Shown: positions 6,350 to 28,800, counted from the stretch's first letter. The stretch: 32,000 bases of DNA from Candidatus Harpocratesius repetitus (GCA_021498095.1 JAIZWK010000001.1:3150001-3182000), one strand, 5' to 3'. A program made the numbers and translations. The notes: generated by a model not told the origin, from the sequence alone.

Positions 6350-6350
6350 T

Positions 6351-8490: not shown

Positions 8491-8679
8491 AGTAACTAAG
8501 TATGTGAAAGCGAAAATGAATAAGAATATTTTCCTTATGAGAGCACATGGAACTTGATCATCAAAATATTATTGATGATTTAAGGATAGATGAAAAATAC
8601 GATGGAAAATGCTTTTTTATAAATGTGGGATTATTTTCCCATAGAAATAACAAAAAATGCAACAATACGTCATCATTTA

Positions 8680-9123
8680 TTATTTCTTTGGAAGATGAAG
8701 GACTTTTTTCATTATTTCATCTGATTTTTGCAAATCTTGGAGAATTTCAGAAGAAATACTTGCCAAATCGGGTAAACAATCTTTAATTGTCGGGTAATTT
8801 ACAATTACAGGAATGAAATGCTTACGCATTCGAACTATATTTTGCCCCATGCGTTTAGCAACAAGAACTCTAACATCTTCCTGTTTCATTGTTTTCGAGA
8901 CATTAAAGGCTTTAATTGGATCACCATGCCGGCTCTCTTCTGGTGTTATATTTGGAATTGTCTTCAGTAATTTAATTTCATTATTTGTTAAATTCCACTT
9001 ATAAATCAGAAAAAACTTGCACGATCCGAAATGTTCGTCAGAAAATGTAGATTTATCATCAGTTCCGATGGCTACATTAATTATTTTGGTATTTTGTTCA
9101 GATTGTGGGTTAAAATCATTCAT
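8680..9123 (-). CDS. NifB/NifX (dinitrogenase Fe-Mo cofactor biosynthesis) family protein
   Basis: VAIGTDD.....EHFGSCKFFLIY, HG motif and VRVLVAKRMG match the NifX/NifB-like fold pattern. Confidence 0.8.
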   Translation of the reverse strand: MNDFNPQSEQNTKIINVAIGTDDKSTFSDEHFGSCKFFLIYKWNLTNNEIKLLKTIPNITPEESRHGDPIKAFNVSKTMKQEDVRVLVAKRMGQNIVRMRKHFIPVIVNYPTIKDCLPDLASISSEILQDLQKSDEIMKKVLHLPKK

Positions 9124-9208
9124 TTATTATTCTCTCAAATTTGTTATTTGCTTAATTTTCATTAATTATTATTTCCTGTACTTCAATGATTTTGTGACAA
9201 TTTTTTAC

Positions 9209-9224
9209 TGATCAAACTTGATCA
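9209..9224 (+). repeat. 16-bp repeat copy A (TGATCAAACTTGATCA), candidate right end of the element
   Basis: Exact reverse complement of 21798-21813. Adjacent hairpin AACCAG/CTGGTT at 9224-9243. Confidence 0.7.
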
Positions 9225-9381
9225 ACCAGTATCACTGCTGGTTATTTTTATTAATAGGTCCCTGCTATATAAATGTTATGAAAAAAATTGAAGCCGAATT
9301 GCCGCAATCATGCCTAAATACCACTGATTTTGAATAGTTAAAGCGGGAAAATATATTTTTCAATTAATCATATAAAATGAA

Positions 9382-12300
9382 TCATGGAGGTGGTTTTTCC
9401 TCCTCAATATTGGATGGTGGCGGCATATCCGATGCTTCATCTTCATGCTGCTGCGATTCTTGTTTGGATTTTTCATGCTCGGTTTTCTGACTAATGATTT
9501 GATTCCATTTTTTAAGCCAACCTGCTTTGCTAAGTTTTATTTTACTTCTTTTATCCTTTTCTACAAATGAGTAAAATGTGTGAATTTGCTTAAATGTTTG
9601 ATAGATCGGCTCAAATGGTGAATCAACCGTAATTGGATCGGTGAATTTTACTTTATCTGCTTCATTCTTGAGATAATTGAAAATGTCTTTTAGTTCCATA
9701 TTTTTTACTTTGGATGCATTGTAAATAATACCTGATTTTGCGGCATTTAAAACGGTTTCCCGCTCCTTGTTAGATAATTCACGCCAATCAAACCATTCCA
9801 GCGAACCGTATGGATGATAACTGCCGAAGGATGTATCCAAAACCTTAAGCAAACCGCTTAAAAGTTTATTTGTCCACTTTTTCATAGATTTTGAATTTCT
9901 TTTTCCTGTATTTTTGTATCTATCAATCTGCAAATTTACCGTTTCTTCAAAATATTTCAATTTATTATATCTGGCAATGTTGTAAGCGCCGTTAACATCT
10001 CGATCGACGATAAATTTTTCTGCTTTTGGTTTTTCATCATTTTCAGATTTAACTATATTTTCATAAAGAAACGTATTTCCTTGAGAAGCATGGATAAAGT
10101 CAATATTAGTATTATTTTCTTTAGAATTAAAGTATTCATTACATAATTCGATTATTTTTGTAGGAACCGAAAAATTATACTCGTATTTATCAGGATTTTT
10201 CGAAATAAAGGAAGCAAATTCATTAAAATTGGCAGTATATCCCGGTCCTTTTACAGGAAATATCCTATTTTTATGAAAAACCATGAGAAATCCTTTTTTA
10301 CCTTCGGTTCCGCTTATGCTCAGTTTTGAAGTATAGGCTGCAGGAACATATCTCACATTTATTCCCTTCATGCTTCCCATTTCTTGGGTGTAATCAGGTA
10401 GTAAGCCGCGAAGCCATCGGGCTTTTTCAAGAGCAAATGATTCACCTTTGGTCGCTTTATACTTCCATAAGCTTTCAAAATTGATTCGGGAATGCATTTT
10501 GAAAATATTTTTGATAAATGATGAATTAGGATTGTTTTCGTCTATGAAAAATTGAGATCCAACAGAAGGCCAAAGATTCTGTATATACGATATTACCGAT
10601 TGCTTTAAATCTTCATTTTGCAGACAGTGATTAATTGATGCTTCAGAAGAACGGAAAACAGCACGGGACAAATTATGGGCGATGTTTCGGTTTAATCTGG
10701 TTGATTTACTATTTATTGAGCGCTTCATGTATGATTTTTTAAGTAAATATTTTGAAGCCCTAACACATTTTTTAACTTTTTTAACTTTAAACCGATTTTC
10801 TACACGATTTTTTTTCTGCTGAAATAGTGCAGCCGTTTTTACAGTATTATTTGAATGTTTTATCAAATTTCTCTGTTCAAAATTCTTTCTGGCTGTATAT
10901 TCTGATAGAGAGATTTCGGTATTATTTAGAGTTTTAATTTTAATTTTATCGGTTGATAAAAATTTATTCTGTGGTTGAAAATAGATCTGCAGTTCATAAG
11001 GGCTACGCAGTCCAAGATCAACTCCTGTCGAAATATAGCCGGGCATTTTTGAATGAATACGCGGCCGCAAGAATTTAAATGGATGATAAATGCGAATATC
11101 TCCGTTAGGTTTTACCTGCAAAAGAGGTGTCGAAAAAGGGGCAAAACCATAAAAATTACCTTCGACAAGTGGATTTTCTGAAGATTTGGAAGGCAGTTTA
11201 TTCTTTCCCAAAGCATTAATCAAAATTTTAGGATAAATTTTTGAAATGAATGAGTAAAATTTCCAAGTTTCAGTTGTTGCCTTAGAATTTAAAAAAGGTT
11301 TTGGAAAAATAATTAGTTTTTGCCAAGCGCTTTTCTCTTTTTCATCTTTAATTTTATCGGTTTCTTTCAGAAATTTATTACCTAAATAATTGACATAGTC
11401 AATGAAAGATAAGTTTTGAACATTTTTATCACCAGGAAATACTTTAAGAAATTTCTGCAATTCCGGAACGATAATATCTTTATATTTGATTAAAACTTCT
11501 TTTTTGTATTTATAGGGCGCTTTGGGATCGATTAAGCCCTGCATGATTCGAAAATTGATTAAAAGTGGTTGAATTCGATTTAGTAAAACTTTGCTTGAAA
11601 AATTGGATTTATTGATTATTTCGGATAATTCTTTAATAATTTGCTTTAATGCTTGAAAATTAATCAAATACTGCTGAATAGAATTATCTAGTTTTGAATC
11701 CAGTATGTCGAAATTTTGATTTTTAAAGTTTATATAATCGCTATATTTTATTTTCAAGATTTTTTTTCCAAGATTGCTTAATACATTATTTATTTTCTTT
11801 TCCGTTTCATCCAAATTTTGTTTTTTAGCTTTAAAACTTTTTTTAATGCTTGAAATTTTCTTTTTAACTTTATTTTTTAAATTTTCAAATTTTTTATTTT
11901 GTTTTTCAATTTTATCAATTTCTTTAGAAAGATCTACTTTTTCGAATGGATCTAATGATTTTAGTAAAGAGATCGGCATTAATAACGGATGGGATTGTTC
12001 TAAACTTTTTACGGGAAAAATCATGGGCATTAAATTCTTTATTGTAGTGCTTATTTCTTCAATTTTTGTGAATTTTACCAAAAAAGGCACACCAGTTCTT
12101 TTCTGGTGAAAATAAAACCATTTAATATGTTTTTCGTTAACTACCATTTCTTTAACTTGAGGAAGATTTAGATTGAAGAATTTATCCCATTCTTCCTGCA
12201 GATGAAAATCTCCTTTGGATATATTGATGGGTGAACATAATATTAGATAATCACGATTTGGTCCAGGCTCAGTTTTTCCTTTTGGTAATAAATAAAGCAG

Positions 12301-15300
12301 ATAGTAACGAAGAAGTTCATAAGGCTCTGATGCATTTTTTACCTGTATTAAGAAGTATGAAGAATCATCTTGGGGTAACCGCACAGTTGCGCTGAAATCT
12401 TTGTAGACGGGCCATTGATCGGGAGGATACAAAATATATTTTGCATAAATTTGGAAATAACTGAGATCTGAAGCGGGAGGTCCTTTTTGAACAACTTCAC
12501 GCATCATTGTAAATAATTCTTTGATAGGATCGGTATTTTTTGGTTTTGGATTGTCTAAATAATTGTCTTCATATTCTTGTTTCAGTTCAACCGCCAAATT
12601 TTTATAATCTTCAGTTAGGTCGGGTAATTTAGTAAATTCACCATCTCTTTTGAATTTCGAAAGCAGTTTTTTCAAATAATTAAATGACAGAGTGATATCT
12701 TCCGTCGATTCAACCGAAAATTGGAACACGGTTTGAAGTATTGATATAATTTTTATTAGAGTGTCTGCCTTATTTGTCTGTATCTTTGTTGGTGTTGTCT
12801 GCCATTCTTCAGCATTATTAGATTTTTCTAAATGACTCTTTAACAATTCTTGAACATCGTTTTTAGATTTTGATCTGAAAACTAGCCTAGAAAGATTTAA
12901 TGCGGGAAATTTACCAAACGAATTATTTTTATCACCCTTTTCAGCCTTTTTTTCATAGAACCAGACTGTTGGGGATATTGACAAGAGATTTAATCCTTTA
13001 ACACCGTATTTTTGAATCCAACCTGTAAAGCTGGGATTATTTTCTAAAGATTTGGTGGATTCATAAGAAAGCGATTTGATTGGATTCTTCTTTTCGATAT
13101 TGTTATTAACATAATTAGTTTTTGCAGATCTTTTAGGTTTGAAACTTGGATTTAACCACAAATTCTTCCATTTTATCAATGAATTAGTTGAAACAGGTGG
13201 AAAATAATTTTCATTTTGGAAATTTAATTCAAACTTTTTTAGTATCCGCATCATTCGCGCTTCTGTAATCCACATTTTCCACATTTTTCCAATTTTTGGA
13301 GAATATGCAAATTTATTGGGATGATTAATCTGCTGAATTACTGCATATGCACTCAAATTTAATTCTTGAGTAAATATCCCGCATACATTGGTATATATTC
13401 TGTTCCAGCTGAGTTTTTCGGTATATGAGAGTTGATTACATTTGGTATTAATAGAATCAATAAATGAATTCGCTTCTGAAATATCCTTATTATAATCCTG
13501 CAGTATTTGTTCTTCATTAAGTGAATTTGGAGCGAAAATACCCGATTTGCCGAACACTAAAAATGTTTCCTTTAAATTTCCAAATATTTTGATAAAAGAA
13601 AATTTAGTTGAAGTTTCATCATTTGTTAATACTTTGTTTGGAATTTGAGATAAATAGGTTTGAATTCGTTTCACCGCTTCAGCTCTATGTAAAAACCATT
13701 CAGATCGGGCAATTTTACATGTTCGTTCATCAATATAATAATGGGATGATTTTCTTTTTATATTCCAAGAACCTTTTCTTGCAGGAGTGAACAGTGCTTT
13801 CAATTCATTTGAAATATTTTTCTTAAATTTATTAAATTGTTCTGCAATATTTATTTTGTTTAATTTTAATAAATTGAGATTTTTTGAATACTCTGAAAGA
13901 TAATTTTGATAAGATTCGCTGTATGTTAAATTATGCCTTATAAAATTGATAAATCTGTAAAAATGTACGTATTGACAATAAATATCCGAAGAATATTTAG
14001 TATAATGGTCTTTTAAGACATCTGCCATTGATTTTAGCACTAAATGGTTCAGTTTTAACTCAAATGAGTAATAATCACTGTTAATTTTCAGCTGAGCAAT
14101 ATTTGAAACGGCGGTGGCAGAAATCTCTTTCACAAAATCTGCCAATTTGTAATTTTTATTCCGCAATTCTTGAGGATCGGTGGATTTAAAGGTGGAGGGT
14201 AATTGAAACACCGTATCTTTAGGATCTGACAAATTATCTTTTTGGTTTTGTTCTTTTTCGTTTTCATCCTCGTCTTCAGTAGATCCATTATCAAAATCAA
14301 TTTTATCAAAATTGCTTAATGTATTCAGTGTTTTGTTAAATGCATCGAACGATCCATCTTCTAAAGCCGCTTGAATCAATTTTTCAAGATGATCAAATCT
14401 TTCTTCCGCTGCACTTGAAACTGCATTATTATTTTGAGAATTTTCTGATCTATAATGCAAATTATCAAAAACCAAGCTCGAATCCGCATTTTCAAATAGA
14501 ATCTGAAATTCTTCGCTATATTTTTCAATCATATCTTTATATAATTGAATTTGGGAATATTTTCCAGATTCAGAAATCGTAATCCTGCAGGGAGGTTCTT
14601 TGTCAAGTTCTTCGCATGATTTTTGGGCGTCTTCTTGAGTATAGATGTAATACGATCGCTTGCTGTGCTGATTTTTTGCAAAATATCCGAAAATTGAATC
14701 TTTCCAAGCAGTTCGAAAAGCTCGTAAAATCATATCCGCAAATTTTTTCTGATTTTCCTTTAATATTCTTTTTCTAAAATCACCATTTTCTAATCCGTTT
14801 ATTTCAGTTTGAAAAATGCCGAATACTTTTAAAGCAAACCTGTTAACTTGTGCGAGTATTATTTCTGCTTCTGCTTTTAGAGGTTCTAAACAAGCTTCCA
14901 ACCTTTTAACATGCCATTCTGCATACTCTTGTGTTTTTTTATTATCTGGAGCAGTATCTATAGGTAGTTCAGAACGCTTTGCTTTATTTATTTTTATACC
15001 CAAATATTTGTCTGAAGGTCGGATCAGCGGTGAGGCAAACAGCAGATCAATAAAATTTCGAATGGTCGAAAAGAGCGGGGTTTTAAATCTTAATTTATTA
15101 AATGATTCTTGATATTCCTGCAGTGCATCCGCCAAATTCTTTCGTTTTTCATAATATTTTTGAGGATTTTTTAAATATTCTATTGTATCGCTGAAATTAG
15201 ATAAATCTATGTTATAATATTGATAACTTAAATGTTTTATAAATTCTTTCTTTTCTTTTTCTGTAAAAGACAATTTTTGAAGAGAATTTAATGTAAAATT

Positions 15301-18210
15301 TGATAATCCTTTCTTTTTATCATGATCACTAGATCTTAATATTAAACTCGGAAATTCGAATATATTCCCGACCTTTAAACTTAAAGTACGGGTTTGAATG
15401 GTCCACGTGATTGGCAGTGCCTGCGGTGTCCAGTTAAATGGCGGTTTTAAAACGTCTCGAACGGCTGGATCGATAATATGTATATAATAATTCTTCAAAT
15501 TAGAAATGTTGTATAGTTGTTTTAGGGTGATCTCCGAAGCTTTAGGATGAAGAACCATTCGATTTGAAGGTTTGTGATAAATAAATATGTCTACGGCTTT
15601 ATGGGGTGGAAGTCTGAGTGCTTGTCGAACTTCATTTGAATTAAAAAATTCTTTTGCCGATCGATTTCCCGAGAAAATGCCTGAACCTTTATCAATTATC
15701 ATTTGACTGATTTTTTTGCACGCTTGATAAAAATCTTTAGAAGATCTATCATAATGTGGAAATATTGAAAAAATTAAATCATGGTGTTCATAAAGATGGC
15801 TGAATTTTCGAACTAGCACAGGTGAATACATGAATCTTTTTTGATCGATATATGATAAGTCATTTTGCAATACTAACCAATGATTTCCTCCTTTTTTACA
15901 TAATTCATTAATCTGATATAATGATTTATTATTTAGATCGACCTGTTTAATAGTGTATTCTGCAGTATCATTCAAAAAACGCTTTAAATAAAAATTAATC
16001 TGAGGTTTAGTTATTCGCATACCCACTTTGAAAGTTTTCATTAAGTCTCGTATTAAGTGGGTGCGATTCCAAGCAGGGTGTCCGAGTTTAGGTGTTAATT
16101 TTACCAGAGAATATTTAATGGTACTTCCTAACATTAATGGTTGAAGCAGCAGTTGAATGTTAGGTAGTTGGATAAATTCTTGAAATTTCATATCTTTCGT
16201 ATCTGGATGAAATCCTGTTCTACGTAAGGTTCGTATAAATTTCTCAAAAAGAGAAGGATTAGTATAAGGTGAATCTAGAAGCACTGCATTAAATTTCCGT
16301 GATTTAGGAGGATAAAAAAGGTTTTCTTTCCTCAATTTGTAATGTTTTATGAATGAAATATCATGAGTGAATGGTTTTGGGCCTTTACCAAAGTGTTCCC
16401 AAATTGCTCGTGCTTGAGGTGCTAATTCGGGTAATATTTCATAGTTGATTAAATCTATTGTGAGAAAAATTACAATTATCATTTGAGAATAAAAGACAAA
16501 ATCACGGAATAGTTTATATGGAAGATGCATATAATGTAGTGGTATATGGTCAGAATATGATAATTCGTAGTGTTTTCTTACAAAAAACCGCATTTTTCCA
16601 ACATCAGGATAAATAAGACGACTCATTGGTCCATTTACATAATCCCTCCATTCTTGGCTGTATAAAGCTTTACCTTCATAAGGATTCGGTTTCCCTTGAA
16701 TTCGAGCGAAGATTCCTTTAATAAATTTCATAAACAACCGTTCTGATTCCCATTTAACCAATTTCCAATCCACATATTTTTTTTCGAAATAGCGGATAAT
16801 TTGCTGTACATCTTCTTTAGAATACTTCGCTTCAGGTTGAACCGCTTGAAAAATACTGCACGGATATATTTTGAAGGGAATCTTTTTGGCGCGCAGAAAT
16901 CTGATTATGGTTGGAATCACATTAGGCATATTCGGATTTGTCATATCTAATTTCGGTTTTATACGGAAAGCATTCCAACCATGGCGAATTCCAATATGTA
17001 ATGGGGAAAAACACGTTAAATAAAAAGGATCTGAATCGGCGTATTTATCTGCCCAATCTTGCATAATCCATTTATTAAGAAAAATTTCATGATCTCTTGG
17101 AACATAAAATCGAATTAACCACGGTGGATTATAGTATCCATGAAATTTCTTGGAAAGAAACTCTACATCTATCGAATATTCTTGTTGAATTTTGAAATTT
17201 TTTTCATTAAAAACTTGAATATGTTGAGTTCTACCTCTTCCCCATGTATATTTACCACATTCAATTTCCTGCTCAATTTTTATCCATTTCAAAGTTCGCT
17301 TTTCTTCCTTTTTAGTAAGACGGGGATAATAAAGATCCGGGATGTCAAACTTTTTTCCTAAACGGAAATCAAGATACATTCGATAAACATGCTCTAATTT
17401 ATACGGAATAATGGGAATTTCGGAATCATTTTTCGCTAAAATTCGGGTATTATCATCTTTAATCCATTTTTTTAGTTTTTGTTCTTTCGCATTCAAAATT
17501 CGTTTTAACTTAGAAGGAATCCGTTTATCTCCCGGTTTTCGAAAGTTACGTTTAGACATGACGGTGGGAGGACGGGACTTGGGCATCATCCTTTTTCTTC
17601 TTCTGTTCCAATATGATTCCAAAGCATCTCGAGAAGAAAAAACTCGATATTTAAAGACTTGCTTCTTAATAGAACGTTCCAACCAGTATCTTTTTTTAGG
17701 GGAAAGCCCAAATTTGCGCATATAAGGCCCGTGAAAATGATTTTTCAATTGTCGAGTTATCTTTTTACGTTTTTCTAATTGTGCCCTTTCAAAATGTTTT
17801 TCTTCCAACCATCTCCGATTGGTATGTTTTCCAGGTTTTTTCCAATCTGGATGACGAGGGTTAATTAAATCACCGTATACATTGTAAACTCTACATCTTT
17901 GGGAATTTTTTGTCAGTTTATCTGGACTTCTTCGTTTGCATATTTTTAAATGGGGGGTAGGTAACATAGAAAGAGGTAACTTTTTCTTTAATGTATAATA
18001 GTCTATTTTTTCCCTATCCGGAATAGTTCTTTCTATTAATCCATAAGGAGTTTTTTTAATAACCGTCTTTTCATTCGGGCTGGGAGGGACTAACAAACGT
18101 GCAATATATTGAAATATATGATCTTTTTTTTCGATTTTTTTAATAAATGGTTCTTCAGTCATTTTTAGCTTCCCTACGCGTATTTCTTTATTGGTTGAAG
18201 TATTTACCAA
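9382..18210 (-). CDS. Giant (~2,926-2,942 aa) protein with a C-terminal TnpB/Cas12-like RuvC nuclease domain
   Basis: RuvC-I GVDLGLRSP (D2398, nt 11019-11017), RuvC-II INFESL (E2579, nt 10476-10474), GINVRYVPAAYTSK, RuvC-III DRDVNGAYNIAR (D2738, nt 9999-9997). The track start is TTG 18210; ATG 18162 after AGGGAAG is a likelier start. Confidence 0.85.
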   Translation of the reverse strand: MVNTSTNKEIRVGKLKMTEEPFIKKIEKKDHIFQYIARLLVPPSPNEKTVIKKTPYGLIERTIPDREKIDYYTLKKKLPLSMLPTPHLKICKRRSPDKLTKNSQRCRVYNVYGDLINPRHPDWKKPGKHTNRRWLEEKHFERAQLEKRKKITRQLKNHFHGPYMRKFGLSPKKRYWLERSIKKQVFKYRVFSSRDALESYWNRRRKRMMPKSRPPTVMSKRNFRKPGDKRIPSKLKRILNAKEQKLKKWIKDDNTRILAKNDSEIPIIPYKLEHVYRMYLDFRLGKKFDIPDLYYPRLTKKEEKRTLKWIKIEQEIECGKYTWGRGRTQHIQVFNEKNFKIQQEYSIDVEFLSKKFHGYYNPPWLIRFYVPRDHEIFLNKWIMQDWADKYADSDPFYLTCFSPLHIGIRHGWNAFRIKPKLDMTNPNMPNVIPTIIRFLRAKKIPFKIYPCSIFQAVQPEAKYSKEDVQQIIRYFEKKYVDWKLVKWESERLFMKFIKGIFARIQGKPNPYEGKALYSQEWRDYVNGPMSRLIYPDVGKMRFFVRKHYELSYSDHIPLHYMHLPYKLFRDFVFYSQMIIVIFLTIDLINYEILPELAPQARAIWEHFGKGPKPFTHDISFIKHYKLRKENLFYPPKSRKFNAVLLDSPYTNPSLFEKFIRTLRRTGFHPDTKDMKFQEFIQLPNIQLLLQPLMLGSTIKYSLVKLTPKLGHPAWNRTHLIRDLMKTFKVGMRITKPQINFYLKRFLNDTAEYTIKQVDLNNKSLYQINELCKKGGNHWLVLQNDLSYIDQKRFMYSPVLVRKFSHLYEHHDLIFSIFPHYDRSSKDFYQACKKISQMIIDKGSGIFSGNRSAKEFFNSNEVRQALRLPPHKAVDIFIYHKPSNRMVLHPKASEITLKQLYNISNLKNYYIHIIDPAVRDVLKPPFNWTPQALPITWTIQTRTLSLKVGNIFEFPSLILRSSDHDKKKGLSNFTLNSLQKLSFTEKEKKEFIKHLSYQYYNIDLSNFSDTIEYLKNPQKYYEKRKNLADALQEYQESFNKLRFKTPLFSTIRNFIDLLFASPLIRPSDKYLGIKINKAKRSELPIDTAPDNKKTQEYAEWHVKRLEACLEPLKAEAEIILAQVNRFALKVFGIFQTEINGLENGDFRKRILKENQKKFADMILRAFRTAWKDSIFGYFAKNQHSKRSYYIYTQEDAQKSCEELDKEPPCRITISESGKYSQIQLYKDMIEKYSEEFQILFENADSSLVFDNLHYRSENSQNNNAVSSAAEERFDHLEKLIQAALEDGSFDAFNKTLNTLSNFDKIDFDNGSTEDEDENEKEQNQKDNLSDPKDTVFQLPSTFKSTDPQELRNKNYKLADFVKEISATAVSNIAQLKINSDYYSFELKLNHLVLKSMADVLKDHYTKYSSDIYCQYVHFYRFINFIRHNLTYSESYQNYLSEYSKNLNLLKLNKINIAEQFNKFKKNISNELKALFTPARKGSWNIKRKSSHYYIDERTCKIARSEWFLHRAEAVKRIQTYLSQIPNKVLTNDETSTKFSFIKIFGNLKETFLVFGKSGIFAPNSLNEEQILQDYNKDISEANSFIDSINTKCNQLSYTEKLSWNRIYTNVCGIFTQELNLSAYAVIQQINHPNKFAYSPKIGKMWKMWITEARMMRILKKFELNFQNENYFPPVSTNSLIKWKNLWLNPSFKPKRSAKTNYVNNNIEKKNPIKSLSYESTKSLENNPSFTGWIQKYGVKGLNLLSISPTVWFYEKKAEKGDKNNSFGKFPALNLSRLVFRSKSKNDVQELLKSHLEKSNNAEEWQTTPTKIQTNKADTLIKIISILQTVFQFSVESTEDITLSFNYLKKLLSKFKRDGEFTKLPDLTEDYKNLAVELKQEYEDNYLDNPKPKNTDPIKELFTMMREVVQKGPPASDLSYFQIYAKYILYPPDQWPVYKDFSATVRLPQDDSSYFLIQVKNASEPYELLRYYLLYLLPKGKTEPGPNRDYLILCSPINISKGDFHLQEEWDKFFNLNLPQVKEMVVNEKHIKWFYFHQKRTGVPFLVKFTKIEEISTTIKNLMPMIFPVKSLEQSHPLLMPISLLKSLDPFEKVDLSKEIDKIEKQNKKFENLKNKVKKKISSIKKSFKAKKQNLDETEKKINNVLSNLGKKILKIKYSDYINFKNQNFDILDSKLDNSIQQYLINFQALKQIIKELSEIINKSNFSSKVLLNRIQPLLINFRIMQGLIDPKAPYKYKKEVLIKYKDIIVPELQKFLKVFPGDKNVQNLSFIDYVNYLGNKFLKETDKIKDEKEKSAWQKLIIFPKPFLNSKATTETWKFYSFISKIYPKILINALGKNKLPSKSSENPLVEGNFYGFAPFSTPLLQVKPNGDIRIYHPFKFLRPRIHSKMPGYISTGVDLGLRSPYELQIYFQPQNKFLSTDKIKIKTLNNTEISLSEYTARKNFEQRNLIKHSNNTVKTAALFQQKKNRVENRFKVKKVKKCVRASKYLLKKSYMKRSINSKSTRLNRNIAHNLSRAVFRSSEASINHCLQNEDLKQSVISYIQNLWPSVGSQFFIDENNPNSSFIKNIFKMHSRINFESLWKYKATKGESFALEKARWLRGLLPDYTQEMGSMKGINVRYVPAAYTSKLSISGTEGKKGFLMVFHKNRIFPVKGPGYTANFNEFASFISKNPDKYEYNFSVPTKIIELCNEYFNSKENNTNIDFIHASQGNTFLYENIVKSENDEKPKAEKFIVDRDVNGAYNIARYNKLKYFEETVNLQIDRYKNTGKRNSKSMKKWTNKLLSGLLKVLDTSFGSYHPYGSLEWFDWRELSNKERETVLNAAKSGIIYNASKVKNMELKDIFNYLKNEADKVKFTDPITVDSPFEPIYQTFKQIHTFYSFVEKDKRSKIKLSKAGWLKKWNQIISQKTEHEKSKQESQQHEDEASDMPPPSNIEEEKPPP

Positions 18211-19408
18211 AATATTTTAAAAATAAACTATACTGAGAATTTTTAATATCACCATAAGAATGATTATATTCAGAAATAGTAAATTCTAATTTGTTTTTAT
18301 TAGTTATATTAAAATTTCTGATAGCAGACAAGATATGTTCCTGAGTTACTTTTTCAGATTTTTGTTCAATAGCGTTTATTTTTGCCAATTGAATTAGGTG
18401 TTTTAGATCCGCTCCAGAAAATCCATCCGTTTCTAGTGAAATTTCATGAATATTGACTTCCTTTGGAACATCTATAAGCATTTGTTCAATGATCAATGAT
18501 CTCGAAGATTGATCTGGTTGAGGGATGAAAACTTGCATACTTAATCTTCCAGGTCTAAGTAAGGCTGAGTCAACCAGATCCTTACGATTTGTGGCACCAA
18601 TAACAAATATATAATTATTAATAATTTCGTTATATTCGAGATTATTTTTTTCATGTGAATTTTCTAAATCAATTTCATTAATTTTTTGTTCATCAATGGT
18701 TGAAGATCTATTTTGATTGGGTAATCTGTTCATTTCAATTAGCAATTGGGTAAACATACGATCAATTTCAGCTGATTCTCTACTTTGACCCCTTTTTGGA
18801 CTTAGTGATTCTATTTCATCTATAAATAAAACTATAGGAGCATTGTTCCGGCAGTATCTAAAGACCCGGGAAATATTTCGGGCTGATTCTCCTACAAGAG
18901 AATTTACAATATCACTAGGGGTTATTACCAGTAAAGGTAATTTCATGTAAGCTGCTAAAGCAGAAGCCAACATGGTTTTCCCGCAACCTGGCGGACCTTC
19001 GAATAATATGCCTGTAGGAAGTTGCAATTTTAATTTTGAAGCAATTTTCCTATATTCGGGATTGGAGATAGGAAGACAAATTTCTTTGATCAATCGATTT
19101 TTAATTGTTTCAATTCCTGCAATATCATTCATTTGGTAAGGATAAGGTTTAGTGACTCCATCATACAATATACCTATTGGTGGTAGATCTTTTTGGGAGA
19201 TTATCTCTATAATTTCATCGTGCTTTTCGTCCACTAAAACTAAATCATGAATTTTTACAAGAATCTTTTCAGGTTTTGGAAATGCAATCCGAATTCCGTT
19301 CAATTCAACTATAATTTTTGTTTTAAACAATTCAATTACTGTTCCAACAGATGTAGGAACAGAAGCTGGATTGCTCTGCAAACGCTGGAAAAATTTTTTC
19401 ATCATCAT
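18188..19408 (-). CDS. AAA+ ATPase, PAN/Rpt/CDC48-like single AAA module with an OB-like N-domain
   Basis: Walker A GPPGCGKT, Walker B LFIDE, SRH ATNRKDLVDSALLRPGRL, GFSGADL. The N-terminal VGTVIEL..KIIVE...LVLVD..EIIEII..LP resembles the PAN OB domain. Confidence 0.85.
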   Translation of the reverse strand: MMMKKFFQRLQSNPASVPTSVGTVIELFKTKIIVELNGIRIAFPKPEKILVKIHDLVLVDEKHDEIIEIISQKDLPPIGILYDGVTKPYPYQMNDIAGIETIKNRLIKEICLPISNPEYRKIASKLKLQLPTGILFEGPPGCGKTMLASALAAYMKLPLLVITPSDIVNSLVGESARNISRVFRYCRNNAPIVLFIDEIESLSPKRGQSRESAEIDRMFTQLLIEMNRLPNQNRSSTIDEQKINEIDLENSHEKNNLEYNEIINNYIFVIGATNRKDLVDSALLRPGRLSMQVFIPQPDQSSRSLIIEQMLIDVPKEVNIHEISLETDGFSGADLKHLIQLAKINAIEQKSEKVTQEHILSAIRNFNITNKNKLEFTISEYNHSYGDIKNSQYSLFLKYFGKYFNQ

Positions 19409-19676
19409 ATACTAGATGCGACACTCTGAAAACCTTTAAATATGGTCTTCAAAAAGTGCAAAAATTCCTGTCAAAGTTAGAAAAAATATTACAATTTATA
19501 TATTTTTGATTTACAAAAACAAGGTTGCATTATTTAATCACTCCAAAATGTGGTTCAAAAATTCTTGATTTAAATATGTTTACTATTCAAATATATTGGG
19601 CAGTAATAAAGTGCCGATTGTAAAATAAAGAAGGTTAGAGAATAAGCATATTAACTGATCTATACTAATTCTCTCA

Positions 19677-19771
19677 GCTGACTCAAGAATTATGAAATAG
19701 ATCGTAAAAATGGAATATATGAACCCTAATATCTCGTTAAGTGCGAGATTTTCGTTTCATATTGAGTTAGC
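19677..19771 (+). ncRNA. Candidate structured non-coding RNA inside the element
   Basis: Closing stem GCTGACTCAA (19677-86)/TTGAGTTAGC (19762-71) with one G.U, stacked TATGAAA (19691-97)/TTTCATA (19755-61), and inner hairpin ATCTCG/CGAGAT (19731-49). Confidence 0.4.
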
Positions 19772-19892
19772 ATAAAAAAACAGTGGATATTAGGTCTATT
19801 ATATCAAAAATTCGAATTATAGAACCATTTACAGGAATTTTATAGATCAAAACAGCGAAAAACTTAAATTATCTGACTCCAATTATTATTTC

Positions 19893-20915
19893 ATGACCGT
19901 TCTACTCAGATCAAGAAAAAAGTTGACCTGTTGTTCGGATCCAAAAATTAAAAATGTCGATGGATTTCGCACATGTGTTAATTGTGGAACAGTCGTGGAA
20001 AGAATACAAATAGCTGAACAAAATTTTTCACAATATGAAATTCTTCAGAAATTTTCTCAAAAAAAGCGAAAGGTTTCTTTAGTAGAAAAGAAAATTTTAG
20101 AATTTAATCCTGTAATACCACGAACATTACAAATGTATCAATCGATTCCGAACAGAAGAATTTTGTCAGGTTATCCTGCGAAATGTATAATTGCAGCTAT
20201 CGGCTTTTATCAATGCGAACATATATTTTTCAGAGAACAAAATTGGTCAATCAAAGATCTTTTTCTAATCAGCCAAATTTACGGAAAAATTGGAGGAAAA
20301 GGACCAATTGCTCAAAATTTTATGTATCAAATTCTGAGCAATTTACAGAGCCAAAATACGAGCAAAAATGAAAAGAAATATGCTCTAAGAATATTGAGAC
20401 ATTATTACAAGAGATTACTTCTGCTCAGCAAAGATAATAACGAATTAAGGCATTTTGTAGATCTTTCCCAAAATCTAATTACCTCTAAAAATTTCAGTTT
20501 TTTTATTGGAATTGCAGAAAAAATTATAAATAAACCAATTCCGAATGCCCTTGGTAAAAAAGAGATTTCTAATTCAATTTTTTATAAAATTAAACGTTGG
20601 ATTTCGCTTAAAACCCAAGAGTTTCGAATTTTTTTCTTGAAAATTAAGGATGTACTTAAAAATGTCACTTGCAAACATACTGGGGAGCAAACTTGGCATT
20701 ATAACAATTTTGTCAATAATTGCTCTAGTTACCATTTTTGTAGTAATAAAGCGGAAAAGAAAAGCTCTAAACCTGAACTTCTTGTCCAGAAAAAAAGAAG
20801 CACCTCGACTACTATCACAAAATTTAAATTCTTCTCGCATGGCTCAAGCAAGATCAGGTATACAAATTATATCGAAGCGCGTTTTGCGCCGCAGAATGTA
20901 ATAGGAGGTTCATAG
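19893..20915 (+). CDS. TFIIB/TFB-like protein (Zn ribbon plus partial cyclin-like repeat)
   Basis: N-terminal CCSDP...DGFRTCVNCGTV matches the TFIIB zinc ribbon. ILSGYPAKCIIAAIGFYQC resembles the cyclin-fold G....iaAa.lY.aC motif. The rest is divergent. Confidence 0.55.
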   Translation: MTVLLRSRKKLTCCSDPKIKNVDGFRTCVNCGTVVERIQIAEQNFSQYEILQKFSQKKRKVSLVEKKILEFNPVIPRTLQMYQSIPNRRILSGYPAKCIIAAIGFYQCEHIFFREQNWSIKDLFLISQIYGKIGGKGPIAQNFMYQILSNLQSQNTSKNEKKYALRILRHYYKRLLLLSKDNNELRHFVDLSQNLITSKNFSFFIGIAEKIINKPIPNALGKKEISNSIFYKIKRWISLKTQEFRIFFLKIKDVLKNVTCKHTGEQTWHYNNFVNNCSSYHFCSNKAEKKSSKPELLVQKKRSTSTTITKFKFFSHGSSKIRYTNYIEARFAPQNVIGGS

Positions 20916-20917
20916 AG

Positions 20918-21325
20918 ATGTTAAATATTGGGGCATTAGTGTCCATGGCTGGCGGCGGCAATCCGATAGTTCCTATAGTTCTATTGGGAGGATTAGAAAT
21001 TGGAGGATTTCTGCTATTCAAGAAGATTAATCCTTTAAATAAAGTAAAAGCTTTATTTAGCAGAATGAAAGAAAAGGCAAATAAACGCCGAGAAAAAAGA
21101 AAAGAAGAATTCAGAAAATTCGGAGCACGTACAAAAAGTGATCTGGCAAAAGCTAAAAAAGCGCCCGCAGTTGATACAATTTGCCCGAAAACGACGCAAT
21201 CAGCGCCATCAAATCCGTCACCAGCTGTTCCTCCAAAGAAGTATTCAATCCACGCTCCACCTCGATTATCGGCACATCGTAAATCCCACAAACATATTCC
21301 AGAAATGGAAACCCGAATCTTGTGA
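20918..21325 (+). CDS. Small hypothetical protein with an N-terminal hydrophobic helix and a basic segment
   Basis: Starts 2 nt after the TFB-like stop. IVPIVLLGGLEIGGFLLF is followed by a K/R-rich stretch. The last 173 nt overlap tnpA on the opposite strand. Confidence 0.45.
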   Translation: MLNIGALVSMAGGGNPIVPIVLLGGLEIGGFLLFKKINPLNKVKALFSRMKEKANKRREKRKEEFRKFGARTKSDLAKAKKAPAVDTICPKTTQSAPSNPSPAVPPKKYSIHAPPRLSAHRKSHKHIPEMETRIL

Positions 21326-21755
21326 GCCGATCCTTATATGCAATCAGCACCCGTGCCACCTTCCTCTGCTCAATTTGCTTCAACAGCCGCCACAATCCTC
21401 TGCGCATCGGATTCAAGCCTGAACCGTATTCTTTAATAATTTTTGCAGGTGATTCATCAGTAAAATGCTTTTTGTGATATTTTTTCAATCGTTCGACCTG
21501 TCTGTCAAGATTTCCATCTTTCTTTTGTTTGGCGGATGAGACTCTGGCATAAATATAGGTCGATTTTACAGTTTCTTCTGCTGGTTGGCACGGTAGATTA
21601 ACCGATTCGGGCAGAAAATCCACCAATTGTTCCCATGAATACCGTCGGTGATTTCCAAATGTCCTTTTAGGAACGAGGTATCCTTTTTTATCCCATCTGC
21701 GTAGAGTTGCAGGAGTAACTCCAAGAAGGCGTGAAGTTTCGGAAATAGTCAGCAT
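21153..21755 (-). CDS. tnpA: IS607-family transposase TnpA (MerR-type HTH plus serine recombinase)
   Basis: MLTISETSRLLGVTPATLRRWDKKG...GNHRRY HTH; catalytic YARVSS; EYGSGLN; KDRLTRFGF; C-helix LVTDLMALIASFSGKLY. Confidence 0.95.
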   Translation of the reverse strand: MLTISETSRLLGVTPATLRRWDKKGYLVPKRTFGNHRRYSWEQLVDFLPESVNLPCQPAEETVKSTYIYARVSSAKQKKDGNLDRQVERLKKYHKKHFTDESPAKIIKEYGSGLNPMRRGLWRLLKQIEQRKVARVLIAYKDRLTRFGFPFLEYVCGIYDVPIIEVERGLNTSLEEQLVTDLMALIASFSGKLYQLRALF

Positions 21756-21775
21756 AGAATTAAATTTGGGGAAGA

Positions 21776-21785
21776 TATATATAAA
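21776..21785 (-). promoter_or_regulatory. Archaeal TATA box for tnpA
   Basis: TTTATATATA on the minus strand, 20 nt upstream of the tnpA ATG, consistent with a leaderless archaeal transcript. Confidence 0.55.
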
Positions 21786-21797
21786 TTAGGCGATCAA

Positions 21798-21813
21798 TGA
21801 TCAAGTTTGATCA
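21798..21813 (+). repeat. 16-bp repeat copy B (TGATCAAGTTTGATCA), candidate left end / TnpA-binding site
   Basis: Reverse complement of 9209-9224. Flanked by an extra half-site CGATCA (21791-96) and a degenerate copy TGATAAGTTTTATGATA (21830-46). Confidence 0.7.
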
Positions 21814-21856
21814 AAAATTTTTTTGCTGTTGATAAGTTTTATGATAGTCAATTCTT

Positions 21857-22654
21857 TTATTTAAATAATTTCTCAATATAATTAAAGAGAAAATCAAATG
21901 GAACACCTCTTGAACTAATATTCCAGATTTTTTTTTTAGGATCAACTGATCGAATTACTAAATATCGATCATTTTCAAGATATTTTTCGGTTCGTTGAAA
22001 TAGTTGAAAATTTGAAAATCTCAATTCAGATTCAATTTTTAACTGTAAAGCAGGAAAAATTATATCATCATGATTTTTTAAAATTGGTTCATGATTTTTC
22101 ATAGTTCTTTCTATAATGATTTTCATCTCAGGAAATTGAGAATAAATTTTTTCTTCTTCATCTATAAAAGTTAAATCGAAATTGGAAACTTCCCAAAATA
22201 ATGGAGATTTTTTTTCGTTTTGAAAACAATTAGGATAGCAATATGAGTAGAATCTTTTTTCCATGATTTCTTCAATTAATTTAGAAAGTTGGTTAGTTTT
22301 CTGAGATATTTCTTTCCATTCTTCATTTGTAAAATCAATTCCCCGGATATTTATATCAAAATAATACCCATTTTGACCAAATCCTAAATTTATATGATCA
22401 ATCATTTGATCAAGCAAGTTATCATTCATTTTTATGAATTCAAAGCGAAATGTGGGATGAATTCTTCCAAGAACTCTATTTTGAGCAGGTTTTTTATAAT
22501 AAGGTATATCCGTCTGGCAATTTAAATTAGTTTCAATAATGGATTTAATGTCCTTCAAATTATTTCCAAATTCTTCAATTTTATATTGAGGTGAATGCCA
22601 TACTTTTATTTTTCCAACAATAAAAGGACTTTCTGATAGAATTTTCATATTCAT
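21857..22654 (-). CDS. Hypothetical protein
   Basis: 265-aa open frame with no recognised motif. Confidence 0.6.
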   Translation of the reverse strand: MNMKILSESPFIVGKIKVWHSPQYKIEEFGNNLKDIKSIIETNLNCQTDIPYYKKPAQNRVLGRIHPTFRFEFIKMNDNLLDQMIDHINLGFGQNGYYFDINIRGIDFTNEEWKEISQKTNQLSKLIEEIMEKRFYSYCYPNCFQNEKKSPLFWEVSNFDLTFIDEEEKIYSQFPEMKIIIERTMKNHEPILKNHDDIIFPALQLKIESELRFSNFQLFQRTEKYLENDRYLVIRSVDPKKKIWNISSRGVPFDFLFNYIEKLFK

Positions 22655-24502: not shown

Positions 24503-24976
24503 TTATTCGTTATAAATAGCGATAGATCCTTCAGATTCAGCGACTTCTACTTGTAATTTATAATTAAAAAACTGCTTTTTCAGAAGTTTGAAGATATATT
24601 CAGCCAGTAATTCAGCTGTAGTAGCAGGTATTGGTAACAATCTTACATCAATTTTAGGAAAGACATAGCGCTTTCCATTAAAGTGTACTTCGATTTCATC
24701 AGCTTGATCAACTGGTGTTTTTATTTCTTGAATATGGATGAATTCACTTTTTGCTGGGAGTAAAACTGCATGATCTAGTCCTGATATGATATCATTAAGA
24801 CTAGATTTTATTTCATAAAAATCAACTACAAAAAAATGCTCATCAAGTTTACCAGTAAGTTCTACATTTACTGAATAATTATGGCCATGCAGTCTCGAGC
24901 ATTTATCATGTTGATAAAGAAAATGAGAAGCGGAAAATTTCAAACGTGGATCGGAAATTCTTACAGTAAACGGCAT
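24503..24976 (-). CDS. queD: 6-carboxy-5,6,7,8-tetrahydropterin synthase
   Basis: FSASHFL, CSRLHGHNY, LDH, TAELLA and VAES motifs. ATG 24976 follows an AGGTGAG RBS, 1 nt after the queC stop. Confidence 0.9.
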   Translation of the reverse strand: MPFTVRISDPRLKFSASHFLYQHDKCSRLHGHNYSVNVELTGKLDEHFFVVDFYEIKSSLNDIISGLDHAVLLPAKSEFIHIQEIKTPVDQADEIEVHFNGKRYVFPKIDVRLLPIPATTAELLAEYIFKLLKKQFFNYKLQVEVAESEGSIAIYNE

Positions 24977-24977
24977 T

Positions 24978-25697
24978 TTAATACTCACCTTTTTTAATAA
25001 CTTCATATGAAAGTGGATCTACTGCATTATTAGCTGCAAATGCTTTTAATCGTTCATCACAACTTCCACATTGACCACAAGCTAATTCTCCTCCTTGATA
25101 ACAAGTCCAAGTTAATGAATAATCAACATTTAATTCCAAGCCTTCTTTAACAATATCTGCTTTAGATATATTAAGATAGGGCACTTCTAGTTTGATTGGC
25201 CAATAATGACAAAGTTTTGCAACTTGTTGCATAACAGATACGAATTCAGGGCGGCAATCAGGATAAATTGCATGATCTCCAGAATGTGCACCATAATAAA
25301 CGGATTCTGCGCGAATTGATATTGCATATGCTAAAGCAAGACTTAACATAATCATATTTCGATTGGGAACAACAGTATCCATCATAGATTCATCATCATA
25401 TTCCCCATGTGGGATTTTTGTTTCAGAGGTCAGCGCGTTTGCACCAAAAATTCCTGCTTTTGTTATTTTTTCTAATGAAATTATTTTATGGGGAAGATTG
25501 AATTTTTCGCAATTTTTAGCTGCAAATTGAACTTCTTTCACATGTTTTTGCCCATAACGAAAAGTAAGACAGTAGATCTCTTTTTTTTCTCTAAGTAATC
25601 GATAAAGTAAAGTAGTAGAATCAAGTCCACCTGATAAAATTAAAACGACACGATTTTTTATAAAACTTTCATCGTTATCAAAATGAGATGAATTCAT
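24978..25697 (-). CDS. queC: 7-cyano-7-deazaguanine synthase
   Basis: PP-loop LSGGLDS, VPNRNMIML, YPDCRPEF and TWTCY..G..ACGQCGSC Zn site. Confidence 0.95.
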   Translation of the reverse strand: MNSSHFDNDESFIKNRVVLILSGGLDSTTLLYRLLREKKEIYCLTFRYGQKHVKEVQFAAKNCEKFNLPHKIISLEKITKAGIFGANALTSETKIPHGEYDDESMMDTVVPNRNMIMLSLALAYAISIRAESVYYGAHSGDHAIYPDCRPEFVSVMQQVAKLCHYWPIKLEVPYLNISKADIVKEGLELNVDYSLTWTCYQGGELACGQCGSCDERLKAFAANNAVDPLSYEVIKKGEY

Positions 25698-25810: not shown

Positions 25811-28800
25811 TTAAGATGCTATTTTTCTTCTTTTTTGGAACAGATATACCATAAAGAGCGAGCAAAAAGTGCTAATTATAAGTAAACTCAGCGAATATCC
25901 AGGAATTGAAGAAAAAGGACTAGTGAATGGTGACTCATCATCTGAAGTATTATCACTAGACGTATTAGATGTATCATCGCTTGTGTTTGTTGTATCATCA
26001 GTTGTTGTATTTGTAGTATCATCAGTTGTAGTATTAGTGGATGTTCTTTCAACAATTTCAACACTAATATTTGAAATCCCGGTCAAACCTTCTTTTGTAA
26101 AGAAATAAATGCCAATTTCATATACTCCAGGATTCCAATTGATTATTAAATAAGAGATTTGTTGCTCATTCTGATATATTCCGGTTATAAGAGTTTTAGA
26201 TTCAGATAATTCAATGATTTGATATGATGTTGGAGTATAACCTTCAGGAACATGTGGAATCCACCAAATTGAGGCAGAACTATCTTCATATAAAATAACA
26301 TCATCAGATTTTGTTATTTCAAATTCAGGAAATGGAAAAATTTCTACTGTGATATTACAAAAACCTGTAACATTCTCGACTGTATAGAAATATGCCCCTA
26401 TGCAGTAAAGTCCAGGACCCCAACCGGTCATGTCGAAATATACCGTAGTACCATTGGAATAACTCGAGTCTCCACCCAATATTGTGCCACCACCCCATAC
26501 ATCAACTATTTCATAATATGTGGGAGTCAAAACTCCGTATAAATATGGTGTCCATGAAAGAATTAAGGTTTGGTTGAAATATACTGAGATATATGTAGGT
26601 TGTTCAATAAAGATTTTTGGAACTGAAACATCAAAAATCTCCACCGTGATATTGCAAAATCCAGTGACATTCTCAGATGTATAGAAATATGCTCCAATGC
26701 AGTAAAGTCCAGGACCCCAACCGGTCATGTCGAAATATACCGTAGTACCATTGGAATAACTCGAATTTCCAGCTAATATTGTGCCACCACCCCATACATC
26801 TACGATTTCGTAATTAGTAGGAGTCAAATCTCCGTATAAATACGGTGTCCATGAAAGAATTAAAGTATCATTAACATTGGCAGAGCGATAAGTTGGTTGT
26901 TCAACATAGATTTCAGCGCTTGGAACATCAAAGATCTCCACCGTGATATTGCAAAATCCAGTAACATTCTCAACTGTATAGAAATATGCTCCGATACAGT
27001 AAAGTCCAGAACCCCAACCGGTCATGTCGAAATATACAGCAGTACCATTGAAGTAACTCGAATCTCCACCTAATATTGTGCCACCACCCCAAACATCTAC
27101 GATTTCATAGTTTGCAGGAGTCAAAGCTCCGTATAAATACGGTGTCCATGAAAGAAGAAGTGTTTCATTGAAATTAGCTGATAAATAGGTTGGTTGTTCA
27201 ATATAGATTTTTGGACCCGAAACATCAAAAATCTCCACCGTAATATTACAAAAACCTGTGACATTCTCGACTGTATAGAAATATGCACCAATGCAGTAAA
27301 GTCCAGGACCCCAACCGGTCATGTCGAAATATACAGCAGTACCATTGAAGTAACTCGAATCTCCACCTAATATTGTGCCACCACCCCAAACATCTACGAT
27401 TTCATAGTTTGCAGGAGTCAAAGCTCCGTATAAATACGGTGTCCATGAAAGAATTAATGTTTCATTGAAATTAGCCGATAAATAGGTTGGTTGTTCAACA
27501 TAGATTTCAGCGATTGGAACATCAAAGATTTCAACAGTAATATTACAAAAACCTGTGACATTCTCGACTGTATAGAAATATGCTCCGATGCAGTAAAGTC
27601 CAGGACCCCAACCGGTCATGTCGAAATATACAGTAGTACCATTGAAGTAACTCGAATCTCCACCTAATATTGTGCCACCACCCCAAACATCTATGATTTC
27701 GTAATTTGCAGGAGTTAAAGCCCCGTATAAATACGGTGTCCATGAAAGAATTAATGTTTCATTGAAATTAGCCGATAAATAGGTTGGTTGTTCAATATAG
27801 ATTTCAGTGTTTGGAACATCAAAGATTTCAACTGTAATATTACAGAAACCTGTGACATTCTCGACTGTATAGAAATACACACCAATGCAGTAAAGTCCAG
27901 GACCCCAACCGGTCATGTCGAAATATACCGTAGTACCATTGAAGTAACTCGAATCTCCACTTAATATTGTGCCACCACCCCAAACATCTATGATTTCGTA
28001 ATTTGCAGGAGTTAAAGCCCCGTATAAATACGGTGTCCATGAAAGAATTAATGTTTCATTGAAATTAGCCGATAAATAGGTTGGTTGTTCAATGTAAATA
28101 GAATAATTGACTGCTTCAACATGAATAATTTTAGATGTTGAATTCACATCACCATCATTATCAGTAATTGATAATTGAACAATAAAATCTCCTGAATTAT
28201 TGAAAATATGAGTCGGATTTGCTAAATTTGAAAATTCTCCATCTCCAAAATCCCAATGATATTCTGTAAAAGGTTGGTTTCCACGAGTCGTTAAATCGGT
28301 AAAACTTACAGTATCATTTACTTTAACATTGATAGGATCATAGGAAAAATCAACTTGTGGAATGTTATCTGGTGTATTTGGATCAGTATTATAAATGAAT
28401 ATTTCATCTCCATCATAGAGTTCATCTCCATCACTATCAGGATTTGCAGGATCTGTATTATATACGTTTAGTTCATCTCCGTCAAGAAGATTATCTGAAT
28501 CAGTATCAGGATTAAGCGGATCAGTATGGGTTGAAATTCTTTCAATTGTTCTATCGGAACTTGGAAAATTATATAGGGTGCCGTCATAACCATTCTCACT
28601 CTGATCATGACAAATATCTCCGGTAGTATTTTCAAAGTCATAATATAGAACCATATCATCCGCAGGATTTGTATTATTCTTTAAATCAATTATCTCACTT
28701 AATGATAATTCTCGATTATAAATTCGAAATTCATCAAAATAAAATGTAGCAAAGTATTTTGCTGATCCCAAAGAATTTTCGCATCCAATATATAAAGGAC

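Follow-up and report, generated by a model that had tools for sequence, protein, structure and literature searches.

A stretch of 32,000 nucleotides from Candidatus Harpocratesius repetitus (GCA_021498095.1 JAIZWK010000001.1:3150001-3182000), analysed here at its full length and called the window below, encodes the AAA ATPase P0001 immediately upstream of a giant gene whose product carries a TnpB/Cas12-like RuvC region. P0001 is PAN/Rpt-like in architecture, as a first-pass annotation made from the sequence had proposed, and it is not a housekeeping PAN. Its catalytic motifs are intact, its family forms a separate clade of sporadic distribution, and its gene is strictly linked to that of the giant protein. 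On balance, we think that P0001 is a dedicated hexameric remodeller working on or with the ~2,900-residue TnpB-like nuclease. The fold and chemistry of the ATPase are known. What is new is a mobile-element PAN-like subfamily that lacks the proteasome-coupling parts and has a tail motif of its own, its strict pairing with a giant TnpB-derived protein, and its association with a double jelly-roll (DJR) capsid module.

A PAN-like ATPase outside the PAN clade

P0001 shares with PAN and Rpt1-6 an OB barrel, one classical AAA module with its lid, Walker A and B motifs, a sensor-1 residue and two Arg fingers. Pfam places AAA (PF00004) at residues 134-296 (E 5e-33, 114.7 bits) and AAA_lid_3 (PF17862) at 318-360 (44 bits), and together with the Walker motifs, the sensor-1 Asn and the paired Arg fingers these assign the protein to the classical AAA clade. 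Aligned with the genome's own two genuine PANs, P0001 shows no variation at Walker A (G138-T145, GPPGCGKT, including K144), D197/E198, N274 or R285/R288, which bears out the earlier description of these motifs as intact. Since Arg fingers act in trans, a ring is implied, and P0001 is likely to be an active, ring-forming ATPase. The PAN profile, the best-scoring named profile, aligns from residue 16, and the AlphaFold2 model (mean predicted local distance difference test score (pLDDT) 76) predicts a five-strand barrel at residues 19-70 that precedes the AAA module, so that the OB-like N-domain of the first-pass annotation stands where PAN has its own. Similarly, the best whole-chain structural matches are Rpt and PAN: Foldseek lists Rpt1-6 and PAN at the top over 380-400 columns, and VIA aligns Rpt chains with Z 27 over model residues 9-380, a score that ties with AAA-only matches such as PAN 3h4m (Z 26, root-mean-square deviation 2.0 Å). 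Three in-frame ATGs open the reading frame; the public record takes the third as the start and gives 404 residues.

The differences from PAN and Rpt1-6 lie at both ends of the chain and in the pore. Only 17 residues precede the barrel, which leaves no room for an N-terminal coiled coil, and none is present, as predicted earlier; the genome's own PANs, in contrast, have long helical N-extensions. The C-terminus reads K-Y-F-N-Q and lacks the HbYX (hydrophobic residue, Tyr, any residue) motif. The genome's two PANs end in V-Y-S and M-Y-A and its three CDC48s in L-Y-S, L-Y-T and L-F-S, and a penultimate Tyr or Phe is found in all 26 sampled Asgard PANs, preceded by a hydrophobic residue in 20 of them. 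While the first-pass annotation was right about the missing HbYX and the YFNQ end, the tail is not featureless: an aromatic and basic motif, F-x-K-[HY]-F-x-K-Y, is conserved in all six full C-termini of the family and sits on an extension of 35-50 residues past the end point of PAN. A second family-conserved feature is an F-R-Y-C-R helix, and, judging by their conservation, the two could serve as family-specific elements for partner recognition. With the coiled coil and HbYX lost, P0001 should neither select substrates nor dock on the 20S particle as PAN does, and some other partner may dock on its conserved C-terminal helix.

At pore loop 1, P0001 has S-L-V-G-E-S where the genome's own PANs have K-Y/F-I-G-E-G, and the aromatic-hydrophobic PAN pattern K-[YF]-[IV]-G-E-G is absent from it. 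The Leu is kept in five of the six family members aligned here, the most distant member, P0143, having Tyr. The earlier report of Leu at the aromatic position was correct, but the substitution is less of an oddity than it appeared: the D1 ring of plant CDC48 has Leu in the same aligned column, and the residue thus has precedent in a working unfoldase. The ~35-residue acidic insert ahead of sensor 1 is likewise present, with 8 acidic, 3 basic and 9 Asn residues, and is disordered in the AlphaFold2 model (pLDDT <50). It is not a family feature, however, because its length ranges from 0 to ~80 residues among relatives (absent in three, ~60-80 residues in two others).

A search of 5.8 billion proteins yields four close non-self sequences (44-57% identity), the remaining matches being of CDC48/Rix7 type at ~33% identity. 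A profile search of 1.84 billion representatives adds one further full-length member, P0143 (35% identity), and one metagenome contig a further copy, for a family of seven, P0001 included, at 35-57% identity. In a maximum-likelihood tree of AAA modules, built like its successor without FtsH, Vps4/katanin and NSF reference clades, the family is a clade of its own, outside PAN (support 100/99) and outside both CDC48 D1 and D2. In the second tree, with long branches removed (a 327-residue chromosomal AAA and six other long or compositionally odd rows), support for the family clade is 100%. A tree that groups the family with PAN is not rejected (approximately unbiased test, p-AU 0.83). The family does not cluster with PAN or CDC48 paralogues, and the outcome that the first-pass annotation had named as refuting its reading therefore did not arise.

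Profile scores agree with this separation. Against the PAN equivalog (NCBIfam NF003069 / TIGR01242), P0001 scores 183.5 and 173.7 bits, far below the cut-off of 500 that the genome's own PANs pass with 519 and 550; the first-pass view that it is no housekeeping PAN thus holds. With CDC48/VAT/p97 it shares 30-38% identity in the AAA module and the D1 pore-loop Leu, but it has a single AAA module where they have two, lacks the double-psi-barrel N-domain, lies outside the D1/D2 clades, and reaches only 160.8 bits on the CDC48/VAT equivalog (TIGR01243, cut-off 802.65). The actinobacterial proteasome ATPase Mpa/ARC also carries OB domains before a single AAA module, in its case a tandem duplicated OB domain. 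Such a tandem duplicated OB N-domain occurs in two family members, P0004 (L004:70-1626) and P0005 (L003:2260-3813). P0001 differs from Mpa/ARC in having neither the Pup-binding coiled coil nor a docking tail of the Mpa kind, and its pup_AAA score is 102 bits against a cut-off of 505.

A search for P0001 at E<=1e-40 gave no match in the other 399 Asgard species genomes, among them two congeners; whereas PAN is universal, this AAA family is confined to rare mobile or virus-like elements of Asgard archaea. These data bear on the simplest alternative, that P0001 is a chromosomal PAN paralogue, ordinary or decaying, without a special partner. In its favour, PAN is the best named profile, and some motifs deviate, namely the pore-loop Leu and an N-R-L at the inter-subunit-signalling position. 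Yet the catalytic residues are all intact, the deviations are conserved across the family of seven, the clade is separate from PAN, congeners and the other Asgard genomes lack a match, and the partner gene is constant. We consider this alternative scarcely credible.

Pairing with a giant TnpB-like protein

The neighbourhood survey confirms a tight and specific link to the giant RuvC gene: at 6 of the 6 loci with readable downstream DNA a same-strand giant homologue comes directly after the AAA gene, with spacers of 25-77 nt (Table 1). The relatives are all incomplete contigs, and a seventh, L002, ends within the AAA gene, leaving its downstream DNA unreadable. In the window the AAA gene abuts the giant gene, as had been noted, with 25 nt separating it from ATG 18162, the likely start of the giant gene; homology to relatives begins at residue 30. 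The overlap that the first-pass annotation also considered, 23 nt long, exists only if the giant gene starts at TTG 18210. The pair is intact without an adjacent capsid module in the window and in L003. Because the adjacency outlasts divergence to 34-42% identity and both the inversion and the loss of the neighbouring capsid block, the giant protein is the most likely client or partner of the ATPase. Co-folding of the AAA with giant residues 17-600 returned "no answer" (score 0.00) and counts neither for nor against such a contact. In L003, a group II intron reverse transcriptase (RVT_1 + GIIM; L003:403-1578, -) is encoded just upstream of the AAA-giant pair.

The giant protein is a member of the TnpB/Cas12 superfamily by the motifs of its RuvC region. 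Our alignment of five giants shows G-[VI]-D-L-G, [FV]-E-x-L and D-R-D-[VI]-N in TnpB order, with the D-E-D positions conserved, and the window giant has the D-E-D triad, this order and a Y-T-S motif before the Zn-finger position. The Zn-finger cysteines themselves are lost in the AAA-linked giant subfamily. The window giant's own TNB match is weak (Pfam, 17 bits), and a PDB sequence search with its C-terminal region gives chance-level matches only, so the RuvC identity was established instead via a distant homologue: the C-terminal region aligns (E 4e-15) with a split giant whose TNB match passes the Pfam cut-off (42 bits). This split giant comes from G142, another closed genome of the same family as the window's, where it occupies 1407-7679 (-) and 7942-10347 (-) of locus L017 (G142:C1:4062000-4081999; 801 + 2090 residues). 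It keeps the TnpB Zn finger and has no AAA gene upstream, so that the AAA partnership is specific to one giant subfamily. Encoded opposite the G142 giant are an SNF2 helicase, an Eco57I-type methylase and a DEAD helicase, surroundings reminiscent of a defence island.

The conserved N-core of the giant (residues 233-952) is as sporadic as the ATPase. Among 400 genomes, a strong match is found solely in the window's own genome, no relatives are found in IMG/VR viral contigs or GTDB genome contigs, and a metagenome scan matched one contig; an ESM Atlas feature search with the N-core and with a 281-residue protein of the capsid module gave no usable match. Fragments of the giant-gene 3' part (56-97% protein identity) lie elsewhere in the genome, at C1:1334512, 2510739, 2654137-2655711, 3286852, 3887894 and 4026469. 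Three of them share start residue 2419, a common point that may mark a boundary of recurrent deletion or recombination immediately past RuvC-I.

Taken together with what is known of the classical AAA clade, the pairing points to a mechanism. The AAA would be expressed from its own promoter, for which a TATA-like box is a candidate, and probably on one transcript with the giant gene 25 nt downstream. A hexameric ring would then use ATP to pull protein through its central pore. It may help the giant protein, or its ribonucleoprotein, to assemble into the active form, or it may strip the giant from product complexes and so allow turnover, by analogy with ClpX and the Mu transpososome. ClpX on the MuA transpososome, as well as TnsC, MuB and IstB, are ATPases that belong to or are recruited by mobile elements and that remodel or regulate a DNA-processing protein. 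These ATPases differ from P0001 in belonging to other AAA+ clades (HCLR, initiator-like), and P0001 has as its partner a giant TnpB-like protein rather than a DDE transposase; it has no significant Pfam match to the ClpX or TnsC/MuB/IstB families. A large survey of TnpB/Cas12 relatives mentions no ATPase; if true, a dedicated AAA partnership would thus give this nuclease superfamily a new accessory function, one that could account for the assembly or recycling of a ~2,900-residue derivative. A PAN-type motor uncoupled from the proteasome, with a new C-terminal docking motif, would also bear on the diversification of proteasomal ATPases in the archaeal lineage nearest to eukaryotes.

The same distribution has been weighed for an ATPase directed at the host. 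P0001 might be a takeover or counter-defence factor that unfolds host proteins or competes with host PAN or CDC48, its linkage to the giant gene being mere operon economy. It is borne by mobile and virus-like elements and absent from ordinary Asgard chromosomes, it has a generic similarity to the defence AAA proteins IetA/IteA, and, having lost the coiled coil and HbYX, it would no longer be coupled to the host's normal pathway. The similarity, however, amounts to 133 bits on the IteA/IetA profile NF042959 (cut-off 510) and 138 bits on the PADLOC IetA profile, below generic AAA matches and below the PAN and CDC48 scores, and P0001 is rejected as an IteA/IetA anti-phage ATPase. A strict adjacency to one partner, kept across 35% identity and rearrangements, moreover exceeds what operon economy would lead one to expect. 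We judge a host-directed role improbable and prefer a remodeller of the giant protein.

Table 1. Positions of the features discussed, in window coordinates unless a locus is named.
Feature	Position	Strand	Description
Repeated end-like segment	9194..9343	.	just downstream of giant gene; elsewhere adjoins tnpA copies
Giant gene	9382..18162	-	~2,926 aa from ATG 18162; open reading frame open from TTG 18210; conserved N-core 233-952, C-terminal TnpB-like RuvC region
TnpB/Cas12-like RuvC region	9841..11163	-	residues ~2350-2790; motifs G-V-D-L-G, F-E-S-L, D-R-D-V-N; Zn finger lost
Spacer, AAA stop codon to likely giant ATG	18163..18187	-	25 nt; no T-run
AAA ATPase gene P0001	18188..19408	-	406 aa: OB N-domain, one classical AAA module, lid, family-specific C-terminal tail
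C-terminal aromatic and basic helix L-F-L-K-Y-F-G-K-Y-F-N-Q	18191..18232	-	in the place of PAN's HbYX; predicted helix 390-404
AAA large subdomain	18521..19135	-	residues 92-296; Walker A 138-145, Walker B D197/E198, sensor-1 N274, Arg fingers R285/R288
Acidic, Asn-rich insert, 35 aa	18614..18718	-	residues 231-265, between inter-subunit-signalling position and sensor-1 strand
Pore loop 1 S-L-V-G-E-S	18884..18901	-	residues 170-175; Leu at aromatic position
OB-like beta-barrel N-domain	19184..19357	-	residues ~18-75; no coiled coil before it
Candidate TATA-like box ATATTTAAA	19435..19443	-	27-35 nt upstream of first ATG; read from sequence only
Zn-ribbon gene ("TFB-like")	19893..20915	+	340 aa, divergent; conserved beside pair in relatives
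Membrane-anchored gene remnant	20918..21190	+	first ~88 residues of ~109-aa gene opening capsid module in relatives
IS607-type tnpA block	21159..21840	-	682 bp; tnpA open reading frame 21153-21755, MerR helix-turn-helix and resolvase domain
DJR capsid-like gene	L001:6581-7468	-	
DJR capsid-like gene	L002:5889-6725	-	
DJR capsid-like gene	L018:1939-2832	+	
AAA-giant spacer, window			25 nt
AAA-giant spacer, L001			33 nt; giants 42% identical over ~2,900 residues
AAA-giant spacer, L003			74 nt; giant split into at least two open reading frames
AAA-giant spacer, L004			77 nt
AAA-giant spacer, L018			71 nt; N-core 34% identity, RuvC region 24%
AAA-giant spacer, L019			54 nt (metagenome contig)

Capsid module in relatives and the packaging alternative

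In L001/L069, L002 and L018 the AAA-giant pair adjoins a conserved block of genes. The block begins with a Zn-ribbon gene, continues with genes for proteins of ~110, 65, 175, 295, 187, 281, 108 and 320 residues, and is followed by fibre-like giants; relative to the pair it is inverted in L001 and co-directional in L018. The model of the 295-residue protein is a double jelly-roll, with two barrels in one chain as in DJR capsid proteins, although at a pLDDT of just 63. It matches PRD1 P3 with Z 11.1 over 275 residues and STIV with Z 10.7 over 247, PBCV-1, FLiP and PM2 ranking next, and its top BFVD matches are tectivirus, STIV, virophage and giant-virus capsid proteins, from E 3e-12. As this protein folds like a DJR capsid protein, the relatives are virus-like elements; they exceed 27.5 kb in length and have two giant genes. 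PHROGs and Pfam searches of the module proteins give nothing beyond weak matches on two fibre-like proteins.

A DJR capsid protein on an Asgard-associated element recalls Skuldviridae and Fylgjaviridae, Asgard DJR-capsid viruses whose packaging ATPases belong to the FtsK-HerA type; one of these viruses is described as 16 kb in size. The element here differs in its length, its two giant genes and its classical AAA, and neither of the papers on these families mentions TnpB or giant proteins. The likeness raises the alternative that P0001 is the virion morphogenesis or packaging motor of a DJR virus-like element, in place of an FtsK-HerA-type ATPase, or that it loads the giant protein into capsids. 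The pair does adjoin the capsid module in L001/L069, L002 and L018, no protein other than the AAA has a Walker A motif in what is visible of the 27.5 kb and 18.9 kb contigs, and the known Asgard DJR viruses all have an FtsK-HerA-type packaging ATPase, none of which is visible in the relatives' contigs, incomplete as these are. A packaging ATPase may, however, lie beyond the contig ends, and the capsid-protein model is of moderate confidence. The pair remains intact where the capsid module has been lost (window) or is non-adjacent (L003), and the AAA is always beside the giant gene while the module's orientation to the pair varies. What the classical AAA clade is known for, in addition, is protein remodelling and not DNA translocation. 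We regard a packaging role as unlikely, if the likeliest of the alternatives. A search for the FtsK-HerA packaging ATPase fold in P0001 itself was negative, its significant Pfam and structural matches all being classical AAA.

Several observations weigh against a remodeller dedicated to the giant nuclease. Two more distant giant RuvC proteins, of G142 and G133, come from genomes without this AAA, so that the nuclease fold itself needs no such partner. P0001 alone has N-R-L at the inter-subunit-signalling position, where its relatives have D-G-[ILF], and coupling between subunits might be weaker as a result. The pore-loop Leu could similarly weaken the grip on the polypeptide, yet P0143 keeps Tyr and the D1 ring of CDC48 works with Leu. 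In three loci the pair stands beside the capsid module with no other visible P-loop ATPase, and on that account the role might be virion-related. Finally, the first tree joined to the family the 327-residue chromosomal AAA, which has no OB domain. Its inclusion as a family member (genome position 1141008) is probably due to long-branch attraction, the protein having a branch length of 4, no OB domain and no tail. The gene of this divergent AAA (C1:1140642-1141625; L033:1135-2118, -) adjoins that of an SMC/RecF-like ATPase.

The tnpA-linked unit and its neighbourhood

Four pieces of the capsid-bearing element survive in the window's genome: the Zn-ribbon gene, an 88-residue remnant, the AAA gene and the giant gene; the rest of the capsid module is absent from it. 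The Zn-ribbon protein is 38% identical to the 346-residue protein of L001, and identities are 34-38% across L001 and L002, where this gene heads the capsid module. It has an N-terminal C-C...C-x-x-C ribbon; the label "TFB-like" comes from a sequence note only, and Pfam has no match for the window protein. The remnant is 52% identical over residues 1-88 to the 109-residue protein of L002. Homology to the relatives ends where the IS607-type tnpA block starts, the block edge truncating the neighbouring gene. The genome repeats this block at least 10 times, with identities of 81-95%, and copies of it form compact elements of ~1 kb together with the segment found at 9194-9343, for example at C1:2352678-2353646, 1753119-1754132 and 2652909-2655711. 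The sequences bounding the stretch 9194-21840 are thus found again elsewhere in the genome, where they form the two ends of compact tnpA elements. In 8900-22200, a search for terminal repeats gave no convincing long ones, so the element ends were placed from these genome-wide repeats. In an empty-site comparison with two congeners, their contigs stop close to the left flank and nothing matches the right one. From its gene content, the cargo of the 9194-21840 unit appears to be a truncated piece of the capsid-bearing element, and the window copy looks like the sole cargo-loaded member among the tnpA elements.

The first-pass annotation had offered the transposition complex as a second possible target, and P0001 would then remodel the complex of the IS607 TnpA, a serine recombinase, as ClpX does the Mu transpososome. 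That 9194-21840 is bounded by recurring ends of tnpA elements fits this idea, but no relative has tnpA near the pair (contigs of 27.5, 18.9, 10 and 7 kb were read), and on this ground the idea is weak. At least 10 other tnpA copies in the genome have no AAA, and because the tnpA block truncates its neighbour, the presence of tnpA in the window looks secondary. TnpA is a very improbable target, and the giant protein remains our preferred one.

A broader proposal joins these strands. The pair may be the core motor of an undescribed Asgard virus-transposon hybrid with a DJR capsid, IS607-type ends and a TnpB-derived giant, in which a PAN-derived AAA would replace the FtsK-HerA packaging ATPase or thread the nuclease into capsids or into an active ribonucleoprotein. 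We find this combination unlikely as a whole, while the DJR capsid module and the IS607 ends do point to a virus-transposon hybrid in Asgard archaea. One element of Heimdallarchaeum has been described as a possible virus-transposon hybrid, and the aloposons and HeimV2 of Heimdallarchaeum encode proteins of 3,000-6,000 residues with an ATPase gene just upstream (PMC8813620). These are likened to the pair by description only, and they differ in that their ATPase is MinD/ParA-like, their giant genes are in tandem and they integrate at tRNA genes (PMC8813620).

Elsewhere in the window, genes at 24503-25697 and 30288-30884 (-) for QueD-like (PTPS), QueC and radical-SAM (QueE-like) proteins could represent a cassette for tRNA archaeosine synthesis or for DNA modification. 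They flank 25811-30058 (-), which encodes a surface-type protein of 1,415 residues with Laminin_G_3, PKD and F5/8 type C domains.

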